The notes under the pieces: model-generated | What the model saw: only the letters and a program-made list of their open reading frames with translations | Databases searched by the model: none | Told to the model about the DNA's origin: nothing | Shown here: in pieces, positions 1 to 54,539 of the stretch | Position numbering within the stretch: the stretch's first letter is position 1 | How the letters are laid out: the number at the start of each line of letters is the position of its first letter | Position numbers and translations under genes: made by a program | Assembly: GCF_000026545.1 (NCBI RefSeq) | Contig: NC_011601.1 | Direction: 5' to 3' (one strand) | DNA: 64,000 nt | Source of the DNA: Escherichia coli O127:H6 str. E2348/69 | GTDB taxonomy: Bacteria > Pseudomonadota > Gammaproteobacteria > Enterobacterales > Enterobacteriaceae

Positions 1-1790
1 CGCTCACCGGCCGTTTTCTGCAGGCAAGTGTCATTGAACCGAATTGTAGCCTGCGTGCACAGTATCTGGCGTCACTACAAACAACGCTGCAACCCTATAT
101 GTGGAACGCGGTTATTCTTGGATTAGGTATGGGGGAACGGTTATCCGTCCCCAAAGAAATCAAAAATATCATGCGTGATACTGGAACGGCGCATTTAATG
201 GCAATATCAGGATTGCACATCGCTTTTGCGGCGTTGCTGGCTGCAGGACTCATTCGCGGTGGGCAAGTTTTTCTGCCTGGGTGCTGGATCCACTGGCAAA
301 TGCCATTAATTGGTGGAATCTGCTGTGCTGCTTTTTATGCCTGGCTTACGGGAATGCAACCTCCTGCATTGCGTACTGTGGTGGCGCTTGCCATTTGGGG
401 AATGCTTAAGTTAAGTGGACGACAATGGAGTGGCTGGGATGTATGGATATGTTGTCTGGCGGCAATTTTGCTGATGGATCCTGTTGCCATTCTCTCGCAA
501 AGTTTATGGCTCTCTGCCGCTGCGGTCGCGGCACTGATTTTTTGGTATCAGTGGTTTCCCTGTCCGGAGTGGCAGCTGCCGCCGGTATTGCGCGCGGTTG
601 TTTCCCTCATCCATCTGCAACTGGGAATCACCCTCCTGCTTATGCCCGTGCAAATTGTCATATTTCATGGCATTAGTCTGACCTCATTTATTGCAAATCT
701 TTTTGCAATTCCCCTGGTGACATTTATCACGGTTCCGTTGATTCTCGCCGCGATGGTTGTGCATTTAAGCGGGCCGTTTATTCTGGAACAAGGGGTATGG
801 TTTCTTGCCGACCGGTCTTTGGCTTTACTTTTCTGGGGGTTAAAGAGTTTGCCGGAAGGGTGGATCAACATTGCTGAACGTTGGCAATGGCTAACATTTT
901 CCCCATGGTTCTTACTGGTGGTATGGCGATTAAACGCCTGGCGAACGTTGCCAGCAATGTGTGTGGCTGTAGGCTTGCTGATGTGCTTGCCGCTGTGGCA
1001 AAAACCTCGACCTGACGAGTGGCAAGTGTACATGCTTGATGTCGGGCAAGGGCTGGCAATGGTCATTGCGCGAAACGGCAAAGCGATTCTCTATGACACG
1101 GGACTGGCCTGGCCCGAAGGGGATAGTGGGCAACAACTGATTATCCCCTGGCTCCACTGGCATAATCTTGAACCGGAAGGCGTTATTTTGAGTCATGAAC
1201 ATCTGGATCACCGGGGAGGGCTGGACTCAATATTGCACACATGGCCGATGTTATGGATCCGAAGTCCGTTAAACTGGGAACATCATCAGCCCTGTATGCG
1301 TGGCGAAGCGTGGCAATGGCAAGGATTGCGTTTCAGCGCGCACTGGCCTTTACAAGGAAGCAACGATAAAGGAAATAACCATTCCTGTGTGGTTAAGATT
1401 GATGACGGGACGAATAGCATTCTTCTAACCGGTGATATTGAAGCCCCCGCTGAACAAAAGATGCTAAGCCGTTACTGGCAGCAAATGCAGGCAACATTAC
1501 TTCAGGTACCTCACCATGGCAGTAATACCTCATCATCGTTGCCATTAATTCAGCGAGTGAATGGAAAAGTGGCACTCGCATCGGCATCGCGCTATAACGC
1601 ATGGCGACTGCCCTCAAGCAAAGTTAAACATCGCTATCAACAACAGGGTTATAAGTGGCTTGATACTCCACATCAGGGTCAAATAACGGTCAATTTTTCA
1701 GCGCAAGGCTGGTGGATTAGCAGCCTCAGAGAGCAAATTTTACCTCGTTGGTATCATCAGTGGTTTGGCGTGCCAGTGGATAACGGGTAG
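1..1790 (+). CDS. ycaI: ComEC/Rec2-family competence protein homolog, C-terminal part (5' end lies upstream of the window)
   Basis: ORF 99..1790 runs open to the window edge in the same frame; polytopic membrane region followed by a metallo-beta-lactamase-like domain with SHEHLDHRGG motif; position immediately upstream of msbA as in E. coli. Confidence 0.85.
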   Translation, partial: LTGRFLQASVIEPNCSLRAQYLASLQTTLQPYMWNAVILGLGMGERLSVPKEIKNIMRDTGTAHLMAISGLHIAFAALLAAGLIRGGQVFLPGCWIHWQMPLIGGICCAAFYAWLTGMQPPALRTVVALAIWGMLKLSGRQWSGWDVWICCLAAILLMDPVAILSQSLWLSAAAVAALIFWYQWFPCPEWQLPPVLRAVVSLIHLQLGITLLLMPVQIVIFHGISLTSFIANLFAIPLVTFITVPLILAAMVVHLSGPFILEQGVWFLADRSLALLFWGLKSLPEGWINIAERWQWLTFSPWFLLVVWRLNAWRTLPAMCVAVGLLMCLPLWQKPRPDEWQVYMLDVGQGLAMVIARNGKAILYDTGLAWPEGDSGQQLIIPWLHWHNLEPEGVILSHEHLDHRGGLDSILHTWPMLWIRSPLNWEHHQPCMRGEAWQWQGLRFSAHWPLQGSNDKGNNHSCVVKIDDGTNSILLTGDIEAPAEQKMLSRYWQQMQATLLQVPHHGSNTSSSLPLIQRVNGKVALASASRYNAWRLPSSKVKHRYQQQGYKWLDTPHQGQITVNFSAQGWWISSLREQILPRWYHQWFGVPVDNG

Positions 1791-3575: not shown

Positions 3576-4558
3576 TCGAAAAAATCTGGTCTGGTGAATC
3601 CCCTTTATGGCGGCTATTGCTGCCACTCTCCTGGTTGTATGGCCTGGTGAGTGGCGCGATCCGTCTTTGCTATAAACTAAAACTGAAGCGCGCCTGGCGT
3701 GCCCCCGTACCGGTTGTCGTGGTTGGTAATCTCACCGCAGGCGGCAACGGAAAAACCCCGGTCGTTGTCTGGCTGGTGGAACAGCTGCAACAGCGCGGTA
3801 TTCGCGTGGGGGTTGTATCGCGGGGATATGGTGGTAAGGCTGAATCTTATCCGCTGTTATTGTCGGCAGATACCACCACAGCACAGGCGGGTGATGAACC
3901 TGTGTTGATTTATCAACGCACTGGCGCACCTGTTGCGGTTTCTCCCGTGCGTTCTGACGCGGTAAAAGCCATTCTGGCGCAACACCCTGATGTGCAGATC
4001 ATCGTAACCGACGATGGTTTACAGCATTATCGTCTGGCGCGTGATGTGGAAATTGTCGTTATTGATGGTGTGCGTCGCTTTGGCAATGGCTGGTGGTTGC
4101 CGGCGGGGTCAATGCGTGAGCGAGCGGGGCGCTTAAAGTCGGTTGATGCGGTAATCGTCAACGGCGGTGTCCCCCGCAGCGGTGAAATCCCCATGCATCT
4201 GCTGCCGGGTCAGGCGGTGAATTTACGTACCGGTACGCGTTGTGACGTTGCTCAGCTTGAACATGTGGTGGCGATTGCGGGGATTGGGCATCCGCCGCGC
4301 TTTTTTGCCACGCTGAAGATGTGCGGCGTACAACCGGAAAAATGTGTACCGCTGGCCGATCATCAGTCTTTGAATCATGCGGATGTCAGCGCGTTGGTAA
4401 GCGCCGGACAAACGCTGGTAATGACTGAAAAAGATGCGGTGAAATGCCGGGCCTTTGCAGAAGAAAATTGGTGGTATTTGCCTGTAGACGCACAGCTTTC
4501 AGGTGATGAACCAGCGAAACTGCTTGCGCAACTAACCTCGCTGGCTTCTGGCCACTAG
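3572..4558 (+). CDS. lpxK: Tetraacyldisaccharide 4'-kinase LpxK (328 aa)
   Basis: 328-aa ORF with P-loop [12 protein letters not shown]; start overlaps msbA stop (translational coupling); conserved msbA-lpxK arrangement. Confidence 0.95.
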
Positions 4559-6957: not shown

Positions 6958-7851
6958 ATGGAACAGCTGCGTGCCGAATTAAGCCATTTACTGGGCGAAA
7001 AACTCAGTCGTATTGAGTGCGTCAATGAAAAAGCGGATACGGCGTTGTGGGCTTTGTATGACAGCCAGGGAAACCCAATGCCGTTAATGGCAAGAAGCTT
7101 TAGTGCGCCCGGAAAAGCCCGACAACTGGCATGGAAAACCACCATGCTGGCAAGAAGTGGGACTGTCCGTATGCCGACTATTTATGGTGTGATGACGCAT
7201 GAAGAACACCCCGGCCCCGATGTCCTGCTACTGGAGCGAATGCGTGGTGTTTCGGTGGAGGCACCAGCCCGAACACCAGAACGCTGGGAACAACTCAAAG
7301 ATCAAATCGTTGAAGCCTTACTGGCCTGGCACCGTCAGGACAGTCGTGGTTGCGTCGGCGCGGTCGACAATACTCAGGAAAATTTCTGGCCCTCATGGTA
7401 CCGGCAACATGTTGAAGTGCTATGGACCACGCTCAATCAGTTCAATAACACCGGTCTAACGATGCAGGATAAGCGGATCCTGTTTCGCACTCGCGAATGT
7501 CTCCCGGCATTATTTGAAGGCTTTAACGACAATTGTGTACTGATTCACGGTAACTTCTGTTTACGTAGCATGCTGAAAGATTCGCGCAGCGATCAGTTAC
7601 TGGCGATGGTCGGACCGGGACTAATGCTTTGGGCACCGCGAGAATACGAACTGTTCCGACTAATGGATAATTCTCTGGCGGAAGATTTGCTCTGGAGTTA
7701 TCTGCAACGCGCGCCAGTGGCGGAGTCGTTCATCTGGCGGCGTTGGTTGTATGTGTTATGGGATGAAGTTGCGCAACTGGTCAACACCGGACGATTTAGT
7801 CGGCGTAACTTCGATCTGGCATCAAAATCACTCTTGCCGTGGCTCGCCTGA
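6958..7851 (+). CDS. ycbJ: Conserved kinase-like protein YcbJ (297 aa)
   Basis: 297-aa ORF, length and position match YcbJ; 3' end overlaps the convergent elyC by 24 bp. Confidence 0.82.
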   Translation: MEQLRAELSHLLGEKLSRIECVNEKADTALWALYDSQGNPMPLMARSFSAPGKARQLAWKTTMLARSGTVRMPTIYGVMTHEEHPGPDVLLLERMRGVSVEAPARTPERWEQLKDQIVEALLAWHRQDSRGCVGAVDNTQENFWPSWYRQHVEVLWTTLNQFNNTGLTMQDKRILFRTRECLPALFEGFNDNCVLIHGNFCLRSMLKDSRSDQLLAMVGPGLMLWAPREYELFRLMDNSLAEDLLWSYLQRAPVAESFIWRRWLYVLWDEVAQLVNTGRFSRRNFDLASKSLLPWLA

Positions 7852-34111: not shown

Positions 34112-34654
34112 ATGCGAATTAAACCAGACGATAACTGGCGTTGGTATTACGATGAAGAGCACGATCGAATGATGCTCGATTTAGCCAATGGTATGCTATT
34201 TCGCTCACGTTTTGCGCGCAAAATGTTGACTCCAGATGCCTTTTCTCCCGCAGGTTTTTGCGTTGATGACGCCGCGCTCTATTTCTCTTTTGAAGAAAAG
34301 TGCCGCGATTTTAAGTTATCTAAAGAACAAAAAGCCGAACTGGTGCTGAATGCACTGGTAGCAATTCGTTATCTCAAACCGCAAATGCCGAAAAGCTGGC
34401 ATTTTGTATCTCATGGTGAAATGTGGATGCCCATGCCGGGCGATGCGGCCTACGTTTGGTTGAGCGACACTCATGAGCAAGTGAATTTACTGGTCGTTGA
34501 ATCTGGCGAGAATGCCGCGCTATGTCTACTGGCACAACCCTGCGTTGTTATTGCGGGTCGCGCGATGCAGTTGGGCGACGCCATTAAAATCATGAACGAC
34601 AGGCTGAAACCGCAGGTTAATGTTGACAGCTTCAGCCTCGAACAGGCAGTCTAA
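34112..34654 (+). CDS. zapC: Cell division protein ZapC (YcbW, 180 aa)
   Basis: ORF-track entry starts at 34076; ATG at 34112 gives [24 protein letters not shown] (180 aa). Confidence 0.85.
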
Positions 34655-47028: not shown

Positions 47029-48069
47029 TTAAGCCTGCGGCTGAGTTACAACGTCTTTGATGCCTTTAACTTCGATCTCTACGCGACGATCCGGAGCCAG
47101 GCAATCGATCAGTGCAGCACGCTGTTTCACGTTGTCACAGGTGTTGCCAGTAACCGGGTTGGATTCGCCCATACCACGTGCGGAGATTTTGTCTGCCGGG
47201 ATACCTTTAGAGATCAGGTAATCAACAACGGACTGAGCACGACGCTCGGACAGAGCCTGGTTATAAGCGTCAGAACCGATGCGGTCAGTGTAACCCAGAA
47301 CAACTACGGAACCGTCTTTCGGATCCAGGTTGCTCAGCTGGCTGTACAGCTGATCCAGAGCAGCCTGACCTTCCGGTTTCAGGGTTGCTTTGTTGAAGGT
47401 GAACAGAACGTCAGACTTCAGAGTGAAGTGCTTGGTCTGTACTTCCGGTGCCGGAGCTGGAGCCGGAGCAACTACTGGAGCTACTTCGCCCTGACCGAAA
47501 CGGTAGGAAACACCCAGGCTCAGCATGCCGTTGTCCGGACGAGTGCCGATGGTGTGTGCGTCACCGATGTTGTTGGTCCACTGGTATTCCAGACGGGTAG
47601 CGATTTCAGGAGTGATCGCATACTCAACACCGCCAGCGAAGACCGGAGAAACGCCGGTGTCGTGGTTTTTACCATAAACGTTGGATTTAGTGTCTGCACG
47701 CCATACCATACCACCCAGACGAGTGTATACGTCCAGATCGTCAGTGATTGGGTAACCCAGTTTAGCGGTCAGCTGAACGCCCTGAGCTTTATATGCACCG
47801 TTTTCAACGCTGCCTTTGTATGGCATACGACCTAACCAGTCATAACCCATTTCAAAGCCAACATACGGGTTAACCTGGTAACCACCAAAAGCACCAGCGC
47901 CCAGTTGGTTTTCATGGGTCGGACCATTGTTAGGAATAAAACCAGTGTCATGGTACTGGGACCAGCCCAGTTTAGCACCAGTGTACCAGGTGTTATCTTT
48001 CGGAGCGGCCTGCGCTACGGTAGCGAAACCAGCCAGTGCCACTGCAATCGCGATAGCTGTCTTTTTCAT
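47029..48069 (-). CDS. ompA: Outer membrane protein A OmpA (346-aa precursor)
   Basis: ORF-track entry extends to 48156; ATG at 48069 (minus) gives [21 protein letters not shown] signal peptide; APAPAPAP hinge; C-terminal OmpA-like peptidoglycan-binding domain. Confidence 0.96.
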
Positions 48070-48202
48070 TTTTTGCGCCTCGTTATCATCCAAAATACGC
48101 CATGAATATCTCCAACGAGATAACACGGTTAAATCCTTCACCGGGGATCTGCTCAATATTAACTCTACCGATATCTTCGGCTTATGCCGAGCACCCCTGG
48201 CG
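48070..48202 (-). promoter_or_regulatory. ompA long 5' untranslated leader (approximate extent)
   Basis: Non-coding stretch directly upstream of the ompA ATG; leader length (~133 nt) from memory of E. coli ompA, not measurable from sequence alone. Confidence 0.4.
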
Positions 48203-48424
48203 ATGTAAAGTCTACAACGTAGTTGAAAACTTACAAGTGTGAACTCCGTCAGGCATATGAAAAAAAAGTCTTGTATAAGGTACGTTTAATCTTTTTTGTC
48301 AGCGACAATTTACAGAAGAAAATCGCGGAAACCGCTTCAGACAAGCCTCCGCAAGGAAAATTAGTCACGACTGAAAGCATTGGCTGGGCGATAAAAAAAG
48401 TTCCAGGATTAATCCTAAATTTAC

Positions 48425-48934
48425 TTAATGATACAAATTAGAATGAATTTTTAGCCCGGAAAGTTGTCTCGTTGCGTGAGAGGATGCGCTTACCGGACGC
48501 ATAATAAACCCCATAGCGTTACCTTCATTTGCCGCATCAACAAGTTCAGCATGCTCTTCTGCAGTCAAATCATCTGCCAACCAACCGATCACCACGCTGT
48601 AATTGCCCGTGCGTAAAGCGCGAACCATTGACTCCACGGTGTGGCAAGGGGAGAGCTGGCTAATCTGCATTACTTTCGTTAAGGGTAGCCCAGATGCCTG
48701 AACCCATTCGCGACTCAGTTTTTGTTGCGGTGTTAACCAGAGTTGCCAGCGCGATTGCTGACCGAGTTGCTGTAACAATGGCAACAGTAGAAGTTGCGTC
48801 ATCATGGGCTGATCTTCGCGATAGACAACTTCACTGATAAGCCCGGCTGTAGTGTTTTCCGTAGAGACACGCGCAATTTTGCTTGCTGCGGATGAGAACG
48901 ACGAATCACGATGTGCATAGCCTGAAGTGTACAT
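48425..48934 (-). CDS. sulA: SOS cell-division inhibitor SulA (169 aa)
   Basis: ORF-track entry extends to 48991; ATG at 48934 (minus) gives [19 protein letters not shown]; LexA box immediately upstream. Confidence 0.95.
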
Positions 48935-48955
48935 AATCAATCCAGCCCTGTGAGT

Positions 48956-48975
48956 TACTGTATGAATATACAGTA
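48956..48975 (-). promoter_or_regulatory. LexA (SOS) box in the sulA promoter
   Basis: Perfect palindrome TACTGTATGAATATACAGTA (CTGT-N8-ACAG consensus), 22-41 nt upstream of the sulA ATG. Confidence 0.9.
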
Positions 48976-49151
48976 TATCCAGTGACGACAAAGATCAACC
49001 CTATTTTCGGAAAGAGCCTCGCAAATTTTGTCGTTGGTGGCGGGAAAACATAAATTAATCTTGCCCCTTAAGAATAAGTTGCCTATTTTCGTAGTTAACG
49101 GATCCGTTAATGTGAATCATTCTTTTATGTTATGATTTTAAAAGGAATTTT

Positions 49152-49781
49152 ATGAAAAGCCTCTCCTATAAGCGGATCTATAAATCACAAGAATACCTGG
49201 CAACGTTGGGCACAATTGAATACCGATCATTGTTTGGTAGTTACAGCCTGACCGTTGACGACACGGTGTTTGCGATGGTTTCTGATGGTGAGTTGTATCT
49301 TCGGGCTTGTGAGCAAAGTGCACAGTACTGTGTAAAACATCCGCCTGTCTGGCTGACATATAAAAAGTGTGGCCGATCCGTTACCCTCAATTACTATCGA
49401 GTTGATGAAAGTCTATGGCGAAATCAACTGAAGCTGGTGCGTCTGTCGAAATATTCTCTCGATGCAGCGCTGAAAGAGAAAAGCACGCGCAATACCCGGG
49501 AAAGACTGAAAGATTTGCCCAATATGTCTTTTCATCTGGAAGCGATTCTCGGGGAGGTGGGGATTAAGGATGTACGGGCGTTACGTATACTTGGGGCAAA
49601 AATGTGTTGGTTGCGACTGCGGCAGCAAAACTGTCTGGTGACAGAAAAGATTCTGTTTATGCTTGAAGGGGCCATTATCGGCATTCATGAAGCTGCGCTC
49701 CCGGTGGCACGCCGCCAGGAGCTTGCAGAATGGGCTGACTCTCTTACGCCAAAACAGGAGTTTCCTGCGGAACTTGAGTAA
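49152..49781 (+). CDS. sxy: Competence regulator Sxy/TfoX (209 aa)
   Basis: 209-aa ORF starting MKSLSYKRIYKSQEYLATLGTIEYRSLFG (TfoX N- and C-domains); 3' end overlaps the convergent yccS. Confidence 0.9.
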   Translation: MKSLSYKRIYKSQEYLATLGTIEYRSLFGSYSLTVDDTVFAMVSDGELYLRACEQSAQYCVKHPPVWLTYKKCGRSVTLNYYRVDESLWRNQLKLVRLSKYSLDAALKEKSTRNTRERLKDLPNMSFHLEAILGEVGIKDVRALRILGAKMCWLRLRQQNCLVTEKILFMLEGAIIGIHEAALPVARRQELAEWADSLTPKQEFPAELE

Positions 49782-51897
49782 TCTGGCGTTGCAGACGACC
49801 AATCTCTGGCAGTAATGCAATCAATAACCCAACTTGTTGTACGACCAGAGGTTCTTTGCTGTCTGCCCGTGGTTCAAGTTGCTGCATCCGCTGTTTCAGG
49901 CCAGCTAATGCCTGATTGACGCGTTCTTCATCAGCAGGTTGATGATGTAGCGCGTCATCAACATAGCAAACTGCGTCATCAAGAAACGCCAGAATTTCAG
50001 GATTAGTTAACTGCTCCCGGTGAGCACCGAGGGCTGAGATATAGCTGGTAAACGTATGGTTAAGGCACAGCAACCGAAACGCGGCTTCGCGAATTTGCGG
50101 GGTAACGTTCGGTTCGCTGGACATATTTGATACCACCGACGCCAGTTCAGCATCACGGTTGTGTGCATCGCGGCGGGCAATACGATACGCCAGACGGTTA
50201 TCACGCCCCTGATGGTATTGCTCCAGTATGGCATCGAGATACCGACAGTTGGCCTCGGTGGCGCGTTCGAGCATTCGCGGCAGATTGCGAAACTTCCAGT
50301 CAGGCCAGATGTAGCTCACTGCAGCCCACGCAATGGCACAACCAATCAGCGTATCGATTACGCGAGGTAACGCCACTTCAAAACCTTCACCCAGCAAGTT
50401 GAAACACAGTAGCACCAAAAGTGTGATGAACATCGTTGCATGGGCGTATTGCACGTTACGGAAGGCAAAAAAGAGCACGCCGGTAATAACCAGCAGCACC
50501 AGCTGCCCTTCCAGTGATGGCACAAACCACAGCACAGGAATGCCAATTGCGATACCTACCAGCGTACCAATAATCCTTAACTTCAGGCGGTGGCGCGTGG
50601 CGTTATAGTTTGGCTGGCAGACAAACAAACTTGTCAGCAAGATCCAATACCCGTGATGCATTCCGGTTATCTGAATGATGGCGTAGCCGAAGCACAACAC
50701 CAGCGACATTCTTACTGCATGACGGAAGAGGGCGGATTCCGGCGTGAAGTGACGGCTAAGACGCAGCCAGATATCACTCAATCCGTGCGGGCTGTCATCA
50801 GCGAGCTCATTTTCGTCATTATTATGGGGCAGTGCCTGGGCCTGTTCTGATTCAATTGTTGCCAGTTGGGCATCAATGGCACGTAAATTGTTCAGTAAAA
50901 ATCCCAGTGTTTTGAGTAAATCAGCAGGAGCGCCGTTATCGCGCATCCGCTCCAGCGCAGCATCAATATGCGTAAAAGCGCGCTCAAAATGCGGATCATG
51001 TTGATAAGGCTGACGCAGCAAAATACAGCGTGACAGTTGCTGGCACGCCTGGCCCTGCATCGACATCAGCCGCTGAAAACGGAACAGCACGTCGCTGTGG
51101 CGAAAATGTTCACGCAATGTTTGATATTGAATATGAGAAGAGCTGGCACGCTCGTGAATATCCTGTGCGACAAAGTAATAATGCAGTGTGCGACGCGTTC
51201 CCCGTTGACCACGATCGCCACGTAAGCGGGTCAGCAGCGAGAGTTTCGTCTGATTCAATGTCGCCATCAGCTGACCGTTGGCGAGAGCCAAATCGTACAG
51301 CGGTGCCTGGCTTTCATCTTCAATATCAGGATCAAACATGCGCGACTTGAGCTCAAGATAACGCGCCAGTTGTTCATAGCAACGCGCCAGGTTGTCCTGC
51401 AGCGGGCGGACCGGGAACAGCAGATGACCAATAAGTGTCAGGACGTTGTACCAGACGGCACCGGCCAGAAGATACATCGGCTGCTGATACCAGTGCTCAT
51501 ACAGTGATGTTCCCAACATAGTGTAAATGGCGATCAGCAATGCACCGAAGGCAATTGTTGCATAGCGTTGACCCAGACCGCCGAGCAAAATGAAGCCGCT
51601 GGTAGAGAGCGTTAAGCCAATCGCAAATAGCCAGGGCCAGGGAAACAGCAATTCTACTGAGGCTGAGGCGATAAAAAAGCAGAACAGCGTAATGATGAGG
51701 TTACGCAAACGTCCCGCCAGTCGGTCATCGAGATCGGTCAGCGCCGCTGCCACCATCCCCAGCGTCAGCGGAATCGTCAGTTTTACATCACCCAGCCACC
51801 ACGGAAACGCTGTGGTTCCACAAAGCGCAATAAAAATACGCGCGTAATACAGCCAGGCGCTGTTCCAGGTATAGCGTTTGAGCAAAGGACTTAGCAT
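49744..51897 (-). CDS. yccS: Inner membrane protein YccS (about 717 aa)
   Basis: Large polytopic membrane ORF; the track gives 720 aa (start 51906, MAFMLSP); recalled protein starts at MLSPLLKRYTWN (51897). The true start is uncertain by 9 nt. Confidence 0.8.
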   Translation of the reverse strand: MLSPLLKRYTWNSAWLYYARIFIALCGTTAFPWWLGDVKLTIPLTLGMVAAALTDLDDRLAGRLRNLIITLFCFFIASASVELLFPWPWLFAIGLTLSTSGFILLGGLGQRYATIAFGALLIAIYTMLGTSLYEHWYQQPMYLLAGAVWYNVLTLIGHLLFPVRPLQDNLARCYEQLARYLELKSRMFDPDIEDESQAPLYDLALANGQLMATLNQTKLSLLTRLRGDRGQRGTRRTLHYYFVAQDIHERASSSHIQYQTLREHFRHSDVLFRFQRLMSMQGQACQQLSRCILLRQPYQHDPHFERAFTHIDAALERMRDNGAPADLLKTLGFLLNNLRAIDAQLATIESEQAQALPHNNDENELADDSPHGLSDIWLRLSRHFTPESALFRHAVRMSLVLCFGYAIIQITGMHHGYWILLTSLFVCQPNYNATRHRLKLRIIGTLVGIAIGIPVLWFVPSLEGQLVLLVITGVLFFAFRNVQYAHATMFITLLVLLCFNLLGEGFEVALPRVIDTLIGCAIAWAAVSYIWPDWKFRNLPRMLERATEANCRYLDAILEQYHQGRDNRLAYRIARRDAHNRDAELASVVSNMSSEPNVTPQIREAAFRLLCLNHTFTSYISALGAHREQLTNPEILAFLDDAVCYVDDALHHQPADEERVNQALAGLKQRMQQLEPRADSKEPLVVQQVGLLIALLPEIGRLQRQITQVPQETPVLA

Positions 51898-51915
51898 AAA
51901 GGCCATATTAGTGGA

Positions 51916-52362
51916 TTATTCAAAACGACGACGTGCATTGGCTTCGCGCGCAGCTTGCGCTGTTTCTACCGATACCACGCGACGACCGACCGGCCATAGT
52001 GCAATAGCGGCAATTTTAAAGTTCGCAATACCGACAGGAATGCCAATGATGGAAATACATTGTGCGATGCCCGTTGCAATGTGCATCAGGCATAACCACC
52101 AGCCAAAGAAAATCAGCCAGAAAATATTCAATACCGTACCGCCAGTATTCAGCAGCACATTTTTGCCAGCCGGGTTCAGTTCATCGACATGAATAGCTTC
52201 ATTGCCATAAGGCACCAGAGACAGTTTAGTGATCTCCCAGCAGGATCGTGTCAGCGGTAAGGTAAAAATCAGCACAATACTGACCAGAGTCGCCAACAGC
52301 CAGCCCAGAGTGGTGGCAAATCCGCCAAGCACAAAGTTCAGAATGTTCAAAACGGTACGCAT
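51916..52362 (-). CDS. yccF: Inner membrane protein YccF (148 aa)
   Basis: 148-aa hydrophobic ORF; stop 10-19 nt upstream of the yccS start (likely co-transcribed). Confidence 0.85.
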   Translation of the reverse strand: MRTVLNILNFVLGGFATTLGWLLATLVSIVLIFTLPLTRSCWEITKLSLVPYGNEAIHVDELNPAGKNVLLNTGGTVLNIFWLIFFGWWLCLMHIATGIAQCISIIGIPVGIANFKIAAIALWPVGRRVVSVETAQAAREANARRRFE

Positions 52363-52484
52363 AAAACCTCGCTTTACTGTGGTTTTCAGTAATGGGCGGC
52401 AATTGTAACGTTTTTTTGGGCTGGAGCACGTTTTCTCTGACGGTTACACTGATAAGAAATAATTTCGTGTGGATCTACAGAGTC

Positions 52485-54539
52485 ATGGAACTGAAAGCGA
52501 CAACGCTTGGAAAACGTCTGGCACAGCACCCTTACGATCGGGCGGTGATCCTCAATGCCGGGATTAAAGTCTCCGGCGATCGCCACGAATACCTTATTCC
52601 TTTCAATCAATTACTGGCGATTCACTGTAAGCGCGGTCTGGTATGGGGCGAGCTGGAATTTGTACTGCCGGACGAAAAAGTGGTGCGTCTGCACGGCACC
52701 GAATGGGGCGAGACGCAGCGTTTTTACCATCATCTTGATGCTCACTGGCGGCGGTGGAGTGGCGAGATGAGCGAAATTGCGTCTGGTGTTTTACGCCAGC
52801 AACTGGATTTGATTGCCACGCGCACCGGAGAAAATAAATGGCTGACGCGTGAGCAAACCTCTGGCGTTCAGCAACAAATCCGCCTGGCTATGTCGGCGTT
52901 GCCGTTGCCGGTTAACCGACTGGAAGAATTCGATAACTGCCGTGAGGCGTGGCGTAAATGTCAGGCCTGGTTGAAAGACATTGAAAGCGCTCGGTTGCAG
53001 CATAATCAGGCGTATACCGAAGCCATGCTTACCGAGTATGCGGATTTTTTCCGCCAGGTCGAGTCTTCACCGCTGAATCCGGCGCAGGCCCGGGCAGTCG
53101 TTAATGGCGAGCATTCTTTGTTAGTGCTGGCTGGTGCAGGAAGCGGAAAAACGTCGGTGCTGGTGGCCCGTGCAGGCTGGTTGCTGGCGCGTGGTGAAGC
53201 GTCCCCTGAGCAAATTTTATTGCTGGCGTTTGGTCGCAAAGCCGCTGAAGAGATGGACGAGCGTATTCGAGAACGACTACATACCGAAGACATTACCGCA
53301 CGCACGTTTCATGCGCTGGCGCTGCATATTATTCAGCAGGGCAGCAAAAAAGTTCCGATAGTCAGCAAACTGGAAAATGATACCGCTGCCCGTCATGAAC
53401 TTTTTATTGCTGAGTGGCGCAAGCAATGCAGCGAAAAGAAAGCGCAGGCGAAGGGCTGGCGGCAATGGCTGACGGAAGAAATGCAGTGGTCAGTGCCAGA
53501 AGGTAATTTCTGGGATGATGAAAAATTACAGCGTCGTCTTGCCTCTCGCCTCGATCGCTGGGTAAGTCTGATGCGGATGCACGGTGGTGCACAGGCAGAA
53601 ATGATTGCCAGTGCACCCGAAGAGATTCGCGATCTGTTCAGTAAACGTATCAAGTTGATGGCCCCGTTATTAAAAGCCTGGAAAGGTGCGCTGAAGGCAG
53701 AAAACGCTGTCGATTTTTCGGGCCTTATTCACCAGGCGATTGTGATTCTGGAGAAAGGTCGCTTTATCAGCCCGTGGAAGCATATTCTGGTTGATGAATT
53801 TCAGGATATCTCGCCGCAGCGTGCAGCGTTGTTAGCGGCATTACGCAAGCAAAATAGTCAAACGACGTTGTTCGCTGTTGGTGATGACTGGCAGGCGATT
53901 TACCGATTCAGCGGTGCGCAAATGTCGCTTACCACGGCTTTCCATGAAAACTTTGGTGAAGGTGATCGCTGCGATTTAGACACGACTTACCGTTTTAACA
54001 GTCGTATCGGTGAGGTGGCAAACCGGTTTATTCAGCAGAACCCAGGCCAGCTGAAAAAGCCGCTAAACAGCTTAACCAATGGAGACAAAAAAGCCGTCAC
54101 ATTATTGGATGAGGGGCAACTTGACGCTTTGCTGGATAAGCTCTCTGGTTATGCCAAACCGGAAGAGCGCATTCTGATCCTGGCGCGTTACCATCACATG
54201 AGGCCTGCCAGCCTGGAAAAAGCGGCAACACGCTGGCCGAAGTTGCAAATCGACTTTATGACCATTCATGCCAGCAAAGGGCAACAGGCGGATTACGTCA
54301 TCATCGTTGGCTTGCAGGAGGGGAGTGATGGTTTTCCGGCTGCGGCGCGGGAGTCGATTATGGAAGAGGCGCTACTGCCACCGGTTGAGGATTTCCCGGA
54401 CGCTGAAGAACGGCGGTTAATGTACGTGGCGCTGACCCGGGCACGCCATCGGGTATGGGCACTGTTTAACAAAGAGAATCCCTCTCCCTTTGTGGATATA
54501 CTGAAAAATCTGGATGTGCCGGTGGCGAGAAAACCGTAA
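52485..54539 (+). CDS. helD: DNA helicase IV HelD (684 aa)
   Basis: ORF-track entry starts at 52392; ATG at 52485 gives MELKATTLGKRLAQHPYDRAV (684 aa); UvrD-like helicase motif LAGAGSGKTSVL. Confidence 0.95.
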   Translation: MELKATTLGKRLAQHPYDRAVILNAGIKVSGDRHEYLIPFNQLLAIHCKRGLVWGELEFVLPDEKVVRLHGTEWGETQRFYHHLDAHWRRWSGEMSEIASGVLRQQLDLIATRTGENKWLTREQTSGVQQQIRLAMSALPLPVNRLEEFDNCREAWRKCQAWLKDIESARLQHNQAYTEAMLTEYADFFRQVESSPLNPAQARAVVNGEHSLLVLAGAGSGKTSVLVARAGWLLARGEASPEQILLLAFGRKAAEEMDERIRERLHTEDITARTFHALALHIIQQGSKKVPIVSKLENDTAARHELFIAEWRKQCSEKKAQAKGWRQWLTEEMQWSVPEGNFWDDEKLQRRLASRLDRWVSLMRMHGGAQAEMIASAPEEIRDLFSKRIKLMAPLLKAWKGALKAENAVDFSGLIHQAIVILEKGRFISPWKHILVDEFQDISPQRAALLAALRKQNSQTTLFAVGDDWQAIYRFSGAQMSLTTAFHENFGEGDRCDLDTTYRFNSRIGEVANRFIQQNPGQLKKPLNSLTNGDKKAVTLLDEGQLDALLDKLSGYAKPEERILILARYHHMRPASLEKAATRWPKLQIDFMTIHASKGQQADYVIIVGLQEGSDGFPAAARESIMEEALLPPVEDFPDAEERRLMYVALTRARHRVWALFNKENPSPFVDILKNLDVPVARKP

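Follow-up and report, generated by a model that had tools for sequence, protein, structure and literature searches.

The convergent genes sxy and yccS of Escherichia coli E2348/69 share 38 bp at their 3' ends, and in all likelihood this is an ordinary tail-to-tail overlap that arose as stop codons drifted at a densely packed convergent junction, as a by-product of compaction. The product of sxy (tfoX) is the co-activator of the CRP-S regulon and a regulator of competence. A preliminary description of the locus had proposed that the overlap might couple expression of this competence regulator to that of its neighbour. Were it true, a coupling of Sxy to yccFS would add a layer to the control of the cryptic competence regulon of E. 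coli, which is poorly understood. The coupling is, however, unsupported by the material presented below, and nothing distinguishes sxy–yccS from the many other convergent gene pairs of E. coli whose transcripts overlap. We infer that the overlap has no dedicated regulatory role.

Genes and geometry of the junction

The analysis covered a 64-kb stretch of E2348/69 DNA (the window), in which the gene order at the locus is ycbZ, matP, ompA, sulA, sxy> <yccS, yccF, helD>. The features that meet at the junction are as follows (window coordinates):

49152–49781, + strand: sxy (tfoX), coding sequence of 209 aa (ORF list, RefSeq, Pfam)
49744–51906, − strand: yccS, coding sequence of 720 aa for a FUSC-family putative inner-membrane transporter (ORF list, RefSeq, Pfam)
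49744–49781, both strands: 38-bp tail-to-tail overlap of the sxy and yccS coding sequences (sequence)
51916–52362, − strand: yccF, partner gene upstream of yccS in yccFS, the operon convergent with sxy (annotation)

Both stop codons were read from the raw sequence: that of sxy is TAA at 49779–49781, and that of yccS is also TAA, appearing as TTA on the + strand at 49744–49746. The two genes, both of them real, thus form a convergent overlapping pair in which each stop lies inside the coding sequence of the other. The overlap encodes Sxy residues 198–209 and YccS residues 709–720, each with its stop, and the codon positions are paired as sxy1/yccS1, sxy2/yccS3 and sxy3/yccS2. The RefSeq coordinates of both genes in E2348/69 equal those of the ORF list, and the RefSeq record of K-12 MG1655 contains an identical 38-bp overlap (sxy, 1021138..1021767; yccS, 1021730..1023883). 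The extent of the overlap is thereby confirmed, and re-examination of the stop positions, a revision of which might have removed it, left both stops standing without ambiguity of annotation. When 3 kb around the junction (100% identical to E2348/69 NZ_CP059840.2) were used as the query in a genome comparison, the sxy–yccS locus was found in 5425 of 5426 complete E. coli genomes, at >95% identity in nearly all of them. An artefact of annotation or sequence, in which one of the stops would have been mis-called and the overlap would not be real, is refuted by the sequence and retains virtually no probability, given the direct reading of the stops, the same annotated overlap in K-12 and E2348/69, the uniformity of the locus among complete genomes and the recurrence of overlapping stops in independent genera.

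As had been pointed out from the sequence, no intergenic DNA is available between sxy and yccS to accommodate a terminator. An intergenic terminator is therefore ruled out, and both transcripts have to end within the neighbouring gene. The expected mutual antisense relationship also holds, full-length sxy and yccS mRNAs being complementary over at least 38 nt, and published RNA-seq agrees on overlapping transcripts. There are practical consequences as well: an edit made at either 3' end changes the last 12 codons and the stop of the opposite gene and, since the 3' ends are shared, C-terminal tagging of Sxy and knockouts of yccS must allow for the tail and stop of the neighbouring gene.

The start of yccS (51898–51906) varies by record, the RefSeq entry of E2348/69 giving a protein of 720 aa (MAFMLSPLL...) and that of K-12 one of 717 aa; the later start of the 717-aa form is also used in gene calls of other genera. 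The gap from the yccF stop to the yccS start is 9 nt for the 720-aa form and 18 nt for the 717-aa form. A ComEC-family competence-gene homologue, ycaI, is also present in the window (1–1790, + strand, running off the window start), about 47 kb from sxy.

Conservation of the junction and of the two protein tails

Orthologues of sxy and yccS are present across Enterobacterales. The junction was compared in 28 additional loci, drawn from other lineages of Escherichia and from Enterobacterales outside that genus, and gene order and convergence were found to be kept in all 28. Including the E2348/69 locus, an overlap is present in 27 of the 29 loci examined, which are phylogenetically non-independent, and the extremes are a 44-bp spacer and a 47-bp overlap:

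E. coli, cryptic Escherichia clades and E. fergusonii: 38-bp overlap
E. albertii: 41-bp overlap
Salmonella: 14-bp overlap
Citrobacter: 11-, 23-, 32- or 47-bp overlap
Intestinirhabdus: 35-bp overlap
Lelliottia and an Enterobacter MAG: 44-bp overlap
Yokenella (TTAA) and Enterobacteriaceae strain ESL0689 (CTAA): 4-bp overlap
Tatumella (Erwiniaceae): 26-bp overlap
One metagenome contig: 2-bp gap
Chimaeribacter (Yersiniaceae): 44-bp spacer

Every overlap that reaches 11 bp has a length of 2 mod 3, which indicates that the phase has been inherited and that the stops alone slide, without frameshifts. The tight packing that persists in 27 of 29 loci could in principle be selected. Two of the sequences retrieved are of doubtful assignment: a 276-bp contig (L022) from an assembly named 'Alkalicoccobacillus porphyridii' shares 98% protein identity with E. 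coli sxy, which suggests contamination, and a 'Raoultella' MAG (L019) is identical to Citrobacter braakii in its junction and protein tails, which suggests mis-binning.

Protein alignment of the non-Escherichia genera to E2348/69 gave an identity of 0.69 for the body of Sxy versus 0.22 for its last 12 residues, the corresponding values for YccS being 0.86 and 0.41. Sxy is conserved to about '...RRQELAEWxxSL' and YccS to about '...LLPEIxRLQxQI', and in both proteins conservation ends just before the overlap. Both tails also lie outside all Pfam domains. Sxy matches TfoX_N (residues 14–106) and TfoX_C (residues 116–194 of 209), and YccS matches FUSC-like (69–348), FUSC_2 (408–528) and FUSC, the last of which ends at residue 685 of 720. 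At the nucleotide level, the columns invariant within Escherichia make up 17/38 (45%) of the overlap, 35/44 (80%) of the sxy-only flank and 112/179 (63%) of the yccS-only flank, and few local stretches of 38 nt are as poorly conserved as the overlap. Judged from these alignments, the functional cores of Sxy and YccS do not overlap, and the ∼25 bp between them are read both ways as unconstrained tails. Unconserved tails between separate cores are a signature of stop-codon drift and not of a selected dual-coding element. Functional work on Sxy by Søndberg (2019) concerned the truncation Sxy1-122 only and is silent on the last 12 residues.

The length of the overlap is likewise unremarkable. From the ends of the conserved protein cores, which lie ∼25 bp apart, each frame runs on for ∼9–10 codons to its first stop, a distance that is typical where, by our estimate, about one codon in 20 is a stop.

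Of the proteins encoded in this neighbourhood, Sxy evolves by a wide margin the fastest, with 69% identity between E. coli and E. fergusonii (L025, 3501–4130); for MatP, OmpA, SulA, YccS and YccF the identity between these two species is 89–96%. The Sxy proteins of E. coli and E. fergusonii are less similar to each other than those of E. coli and Salmonella (72%).

Overlaps of this kind are common. Among the 10 convergent pairs of coding sequences in the 64-kb window, 4 overlap (by 4, 4, 24 and 38 bp), the other three being the following:

58353–58356: tusE/yccX, 4-bp convergent overlap
34651–34654: ycbX/zapC, 4-bp convergent overlap
7828–7851: elyC/ycbJ, 24-bp convergent overlap

In E. coli as a whole, 75 convergent coding overlaps were counted by Huvet & Stumpf (2014; PMC4161906), and 276 of 370 convergent operons were found by Conway et al. 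(2014; PMC4161252) to have complementary 3' ends, with a mean overlap of 286 nt. The sxy–yccS overlap itself is already known, having been annotated, illustrated and catalogued. The yccFS operon is stated as such by Conway et al. (PMC4161252), where sxy and yccFS are shown as operons that converge, and sxy–yccS is among the 165 convergent transcript overlaps of MG1655 reported with ExcludonFinder (2025, NAR; PMC12288877), for which the overlap had to be present in at least 50% of 58 MG1655 transcriptomes. All four overlapping pairs of the window are in that list, and its authors argue that excludome pairs are more syntenic than other pairs. The evidence thus far favours a by-product of compaction of the genome; the catalogued tail-to-tail overlaps of E. 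coli run to dozens and its convergent transcript overlaps to hundreds.

Transcripts and termination signals around the junction

Read counts for the three genes are available from total RNA of K-12 (Huang et al. 2020, PMC7373196, Table S1c; gene-level values from a single condition). As reads per million (RPM), sense/antisense, they are:

sxy (yccR): wild type 32.7/9.7, rnc-14 21.6/5.0, rnc-38 16.0/3.6
yccS: wild type 63.0/20.9, rnc-14 40.3/13.0, rnc-38 26.5/15.4
yccF: wild type 17.0/0.5, rnc-14 14.35/0.49, rnc-38 8.06/0.74

Antisense reads amount to ∼30% of sense reads on sxy and yccS and to ∼3% on yccF (PMC7373196). When the wild-type values are computed per kb, antisense reads on sxy stand at ∼15 RPM versus ∼29 for yccS sense, and antisense reads on yccS at ∼10 versus ∼52 for sxy sense, with ∼1 for yccF antisense. 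Such densities are consistent with substantial bidirectional read-through that ceases before it reaches yccF. In neither rnc strain do the sense reads of sxy or yccS rise; in these gene-level RPM from one condition they fall. Double-stranded RNA captured by p19 maps to both genes, with hot spots in the body of yccS (old coordinates 1021518 and 1022410, ∼50309 and ∼51201 of the window) and none in the overlap; in the same study convergent operon overlaps yield ∼38-fold less p19-captured dsRNA than divergent ones (PMC7373196). The available part of the Term-seq tables of Adams (2021) holds no entry for sxy, yccS or K-12 positions 10215xx–10220xx, and literature matches to the name yccS alone were unrelated acronyms only.

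Antisense activity is higher at the nearby sulA (48425–48935; old K-12 coordinates 1019580–1020067) than at the sxy/yccS overlap: p19-captured dsRNA is abundant there (110–894 RPM, several hot spots; PMC7373196), and a stationary-phase antisense transcript over sulA was described by Conway et al. (PMC4161252).

Candidate termination elements were sought on both strands, and the following are referred to below:

49746–49789, both strands: inverted repeat ACGCCA...TGGCGT bracketing the overlap (folds; weak, not conserved)
49631–49644, − strand: 5-bp hairpin CTGTCACCAGACAG followed by TTTTGCTGCC, 100 nt past the yccS stop, a weak terminator-like match (consensus scan)
49889–49923, + strand: weak hairpin (dG −12.7) with the tail TTCTTCATC, 108–142 nt past the sxy stop and inside yccS (relaxed scan)
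49534–49630, − strand: C-rich, G-poor stretch (C 0.40, G 0.125), candidate rut (composition scan)

The inverted repeat spans both stop codons and includes an inner 6-bp hairpin, GCAGGAAACTCCTGT, at 49754–49768 on the − strand (dG −6.0 kcal/mol), which is followed by TTTGGCGTAA. Compared with shuffled sequences, folds of the junction gave z = −1.2 for 201 nt and z = −2.1 for 221 nt. Other E. coli lineages have lost the outer helix of the repeat, and other genera lack the structure altogether; no conserved hairpin in or near the overlap was detected in folds of both strands, folds of 21 relatives or the Escherichia alignment. Nor did a consensus scan reveal a canonical intrinsic terminator at the junction, a relaxed scan adding weak candidates only; the consensus scan returned 7 terminator-like matches in the region, versus 3.8 ± 2.0 expected from shuffles. 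Rfam gave no credible match in 48000–52500.

Two of these elements were considered as terminators and rejected. The inner hairpin with its U tract at the yccS stop (49754–49768) is weak (−6 kcal/mol), would leave a non-stop mRNA and is not conserved. The hairpin at 49889–49923 is the only terminator-like element for sxy read-through, and its stem is broken in K-12 (GCCTG to GCCTC) and in E. fergusonii, so that it is not a conserved sxy terminator. Elsewhere, the spacer of Chimaeribacter coloradensis (L032, ∼4137–4163) holds a perfect 11-bp GC hairpin, GGGTAGCCGGC-ACCCG-GCCGGCTACCC, that lacks a U tract. The hairpin is similar to bidirectional terminators that have been described for convergent genes and consist of a hairpin only, and it shows that a structured sxy–yccS junction exists in at least one distant relative.

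The C-rich stretch lies opposite sxy codons ∼128–160, on the antisense RNA 115–210 nt beyond the yccS stop, and ranks in the top 16 of the 127,842 80-nt windows of the 64-kb sequence. No C-rich region was found within 400 nt after the sxy stop. The excess of C over G in this stretch is greater than in synonymous-codon resampling of sxy (gene-wide maximum test, P = 0.002, the highest of 52 genes), and a skew beyond that predicted by codon usage hints at selection at the nucleotide level in E. coli. By taxon, the excess is seen in E. coli (P = 0.002–0.004) and marginally in Lelliottia (P = 0.03), and it is not significant in Salmonella (P = 0.79), Citrobacter (0.1–0.3), Chimaeribacter (0.57), Yokenella or Tatumella. 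Since the excess is absent from most other genera, the stretch is not regarded as a conserved device; its composition makes it a plausible candidate Rho site for yccFS in E. coli.

The junction can be accounted for as follows. Each reading frame runs through the ∼25-bp stretch between the cores, and slightly into the core of the other gene, until it meets a stop, and what might have been a spacer thus encodes, on either strand, a short C-terminal tail under weak constraint. The yccFS transcript would end inside sxy, probably in a Rho-dependent manner after ribosome release, and that of sxy well inside yccS, probably by diffuse or leaky termination. Both terminations would give the complementary 3' ends reported by RNA-seq.

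Alternative explanations and related systems

Three other readings assign the junction an active role. The pair could be a convergent excludon, in which sxy and yccFS would be mutually antagonistic through collision of RNA polymerases and/or RNase III cleavage of the 3' duplex, tying the induction of competence to the transporter operon. The duplex contains both stop codons, and its cleavage would leave non-stop mRNAs. Full-length sxy and yccS mRNAs must indeed pair over at least 38 nt, the pair is in the list of 165 convergent excludons (PMC12288877), and both genes carry antisense RNA at ∼30% of sense as well as p19 dsRNA reads (PMC7373196). We nevertheless consider this reading unlikely. 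The ExcludonFinder listing registers transcript overlap alone, with no anticorrelation or perturbation reported there for sxy–yccS, and in the gene-level counts from one condition neither gene is derepressed in rnc-14 or rnc-38 (PMC7373196). Collisions should be rare because both genes are lowly expressed, the length and sequence of the overlap are not conserved, the p19 hot spots fall in the body of yccS outside the overlap, and p19 dsRNA is far scarcer at convergent than at divergent overlaps. The overlapping convergent operons of Conway et al. (PMC4161252) and the excludons of ExcludonFinder (PMC12288877) do include this very pair and its converging, overlapping transcripts; the concept, however, implies mutually exclusive expression by interference or RNase III, and it is by overlapping transcripts that sxy–yccS is known here.

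Alternatively, the junction could act as an overlapping bidirectional terminator of the collision type, with the 49746–49789 hairpin pausing RNA polymerase in both transcripts and head-on collisions setting the ends inside the overlap. As the model of Ju (2019) is described in Wang (2022, bioRxiv 10.1101/2022.10.23.513370), a hairpin between convergent genes is needed and neither a U tract nor Rho is, which an inverted repeat with an inner 6-bp hairpin spanning both stops could satisfy, and the 44-bp spacer of Chimaeribacter with its perfect 11-bp GC hairpin is in line with such a model. The E. coli hairpin is, however, weak both in its inner stem (−6 kcal/mol) and relative to shuffles (z = −1.2 and −2.1), other E. 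coli lineages have lost its outer helix, other genera lack the structure altogether, and translating ribosomes would cover the hairpin. Transcripts ending there would be non-stop mRNAs, the antisense reads across both gene bodies argue for read-through, and the model works best for highly expressed pairs (Wang 2022), whereas sxy and yccS are lowly expressed. We regard this explanation as highly improbable. About equally slight is the chance of an E. coli-specific device formed by the junction and the C-rich stretch together, in which yccFS transcription would proceed 100–400 nt into sxy before being terminated by Rho, and the antisense RNA and polymerase traffic would damp sxy, thereby contributing to the fact that competence in E. 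coli is cryptic and hard to induce. Stop-codon drift at a compact junction remains the preferred explanation.

With overlapping bidirectional terminators, as far as Wang (2022) relates the work of Ju (2019), sxy–yccS shares the convergent arrangement, a small inverted repeat and the lack of a canonical intrinsic terminator, but its hairpin lies within both coding sequences, is weak and unconserved, and belongs to lowly expressed genes. A further parallel is offered by dnaQ–rnh and ilvA–ilvY of E. coli, which, as cited in Conway et al. (2014), are likewise convergent transcripts ending inside or beyond the neighbouring gene; going by that citation, these two pairs have been mapped experimentally, whereas sxy–yccS is known from genome-wide RNA-seq alone. 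The tail-to-tail overlapping pairs surveyed by Huvet & Stumpf (2014, PMC4161906) and Palleja (2009, PMC2716372) are of the same type as sxy/yccS, being protein-coding genes on opposite strands with shared 3' ends, and such pairs arise by 3' extension after loss or shift of a stop codon. As in these pairs, the overlap of sxy and yccS consists of C-terminal extensions and its length shifts between relatives as the stops move. With its 38 bp it exceeds the common 4-bp type (TTAA or CTAG), to which tusE/yccX, ycbX/zapC and the sxy/yccS junction of Yokenella belong; otherwise it does not differ from them.
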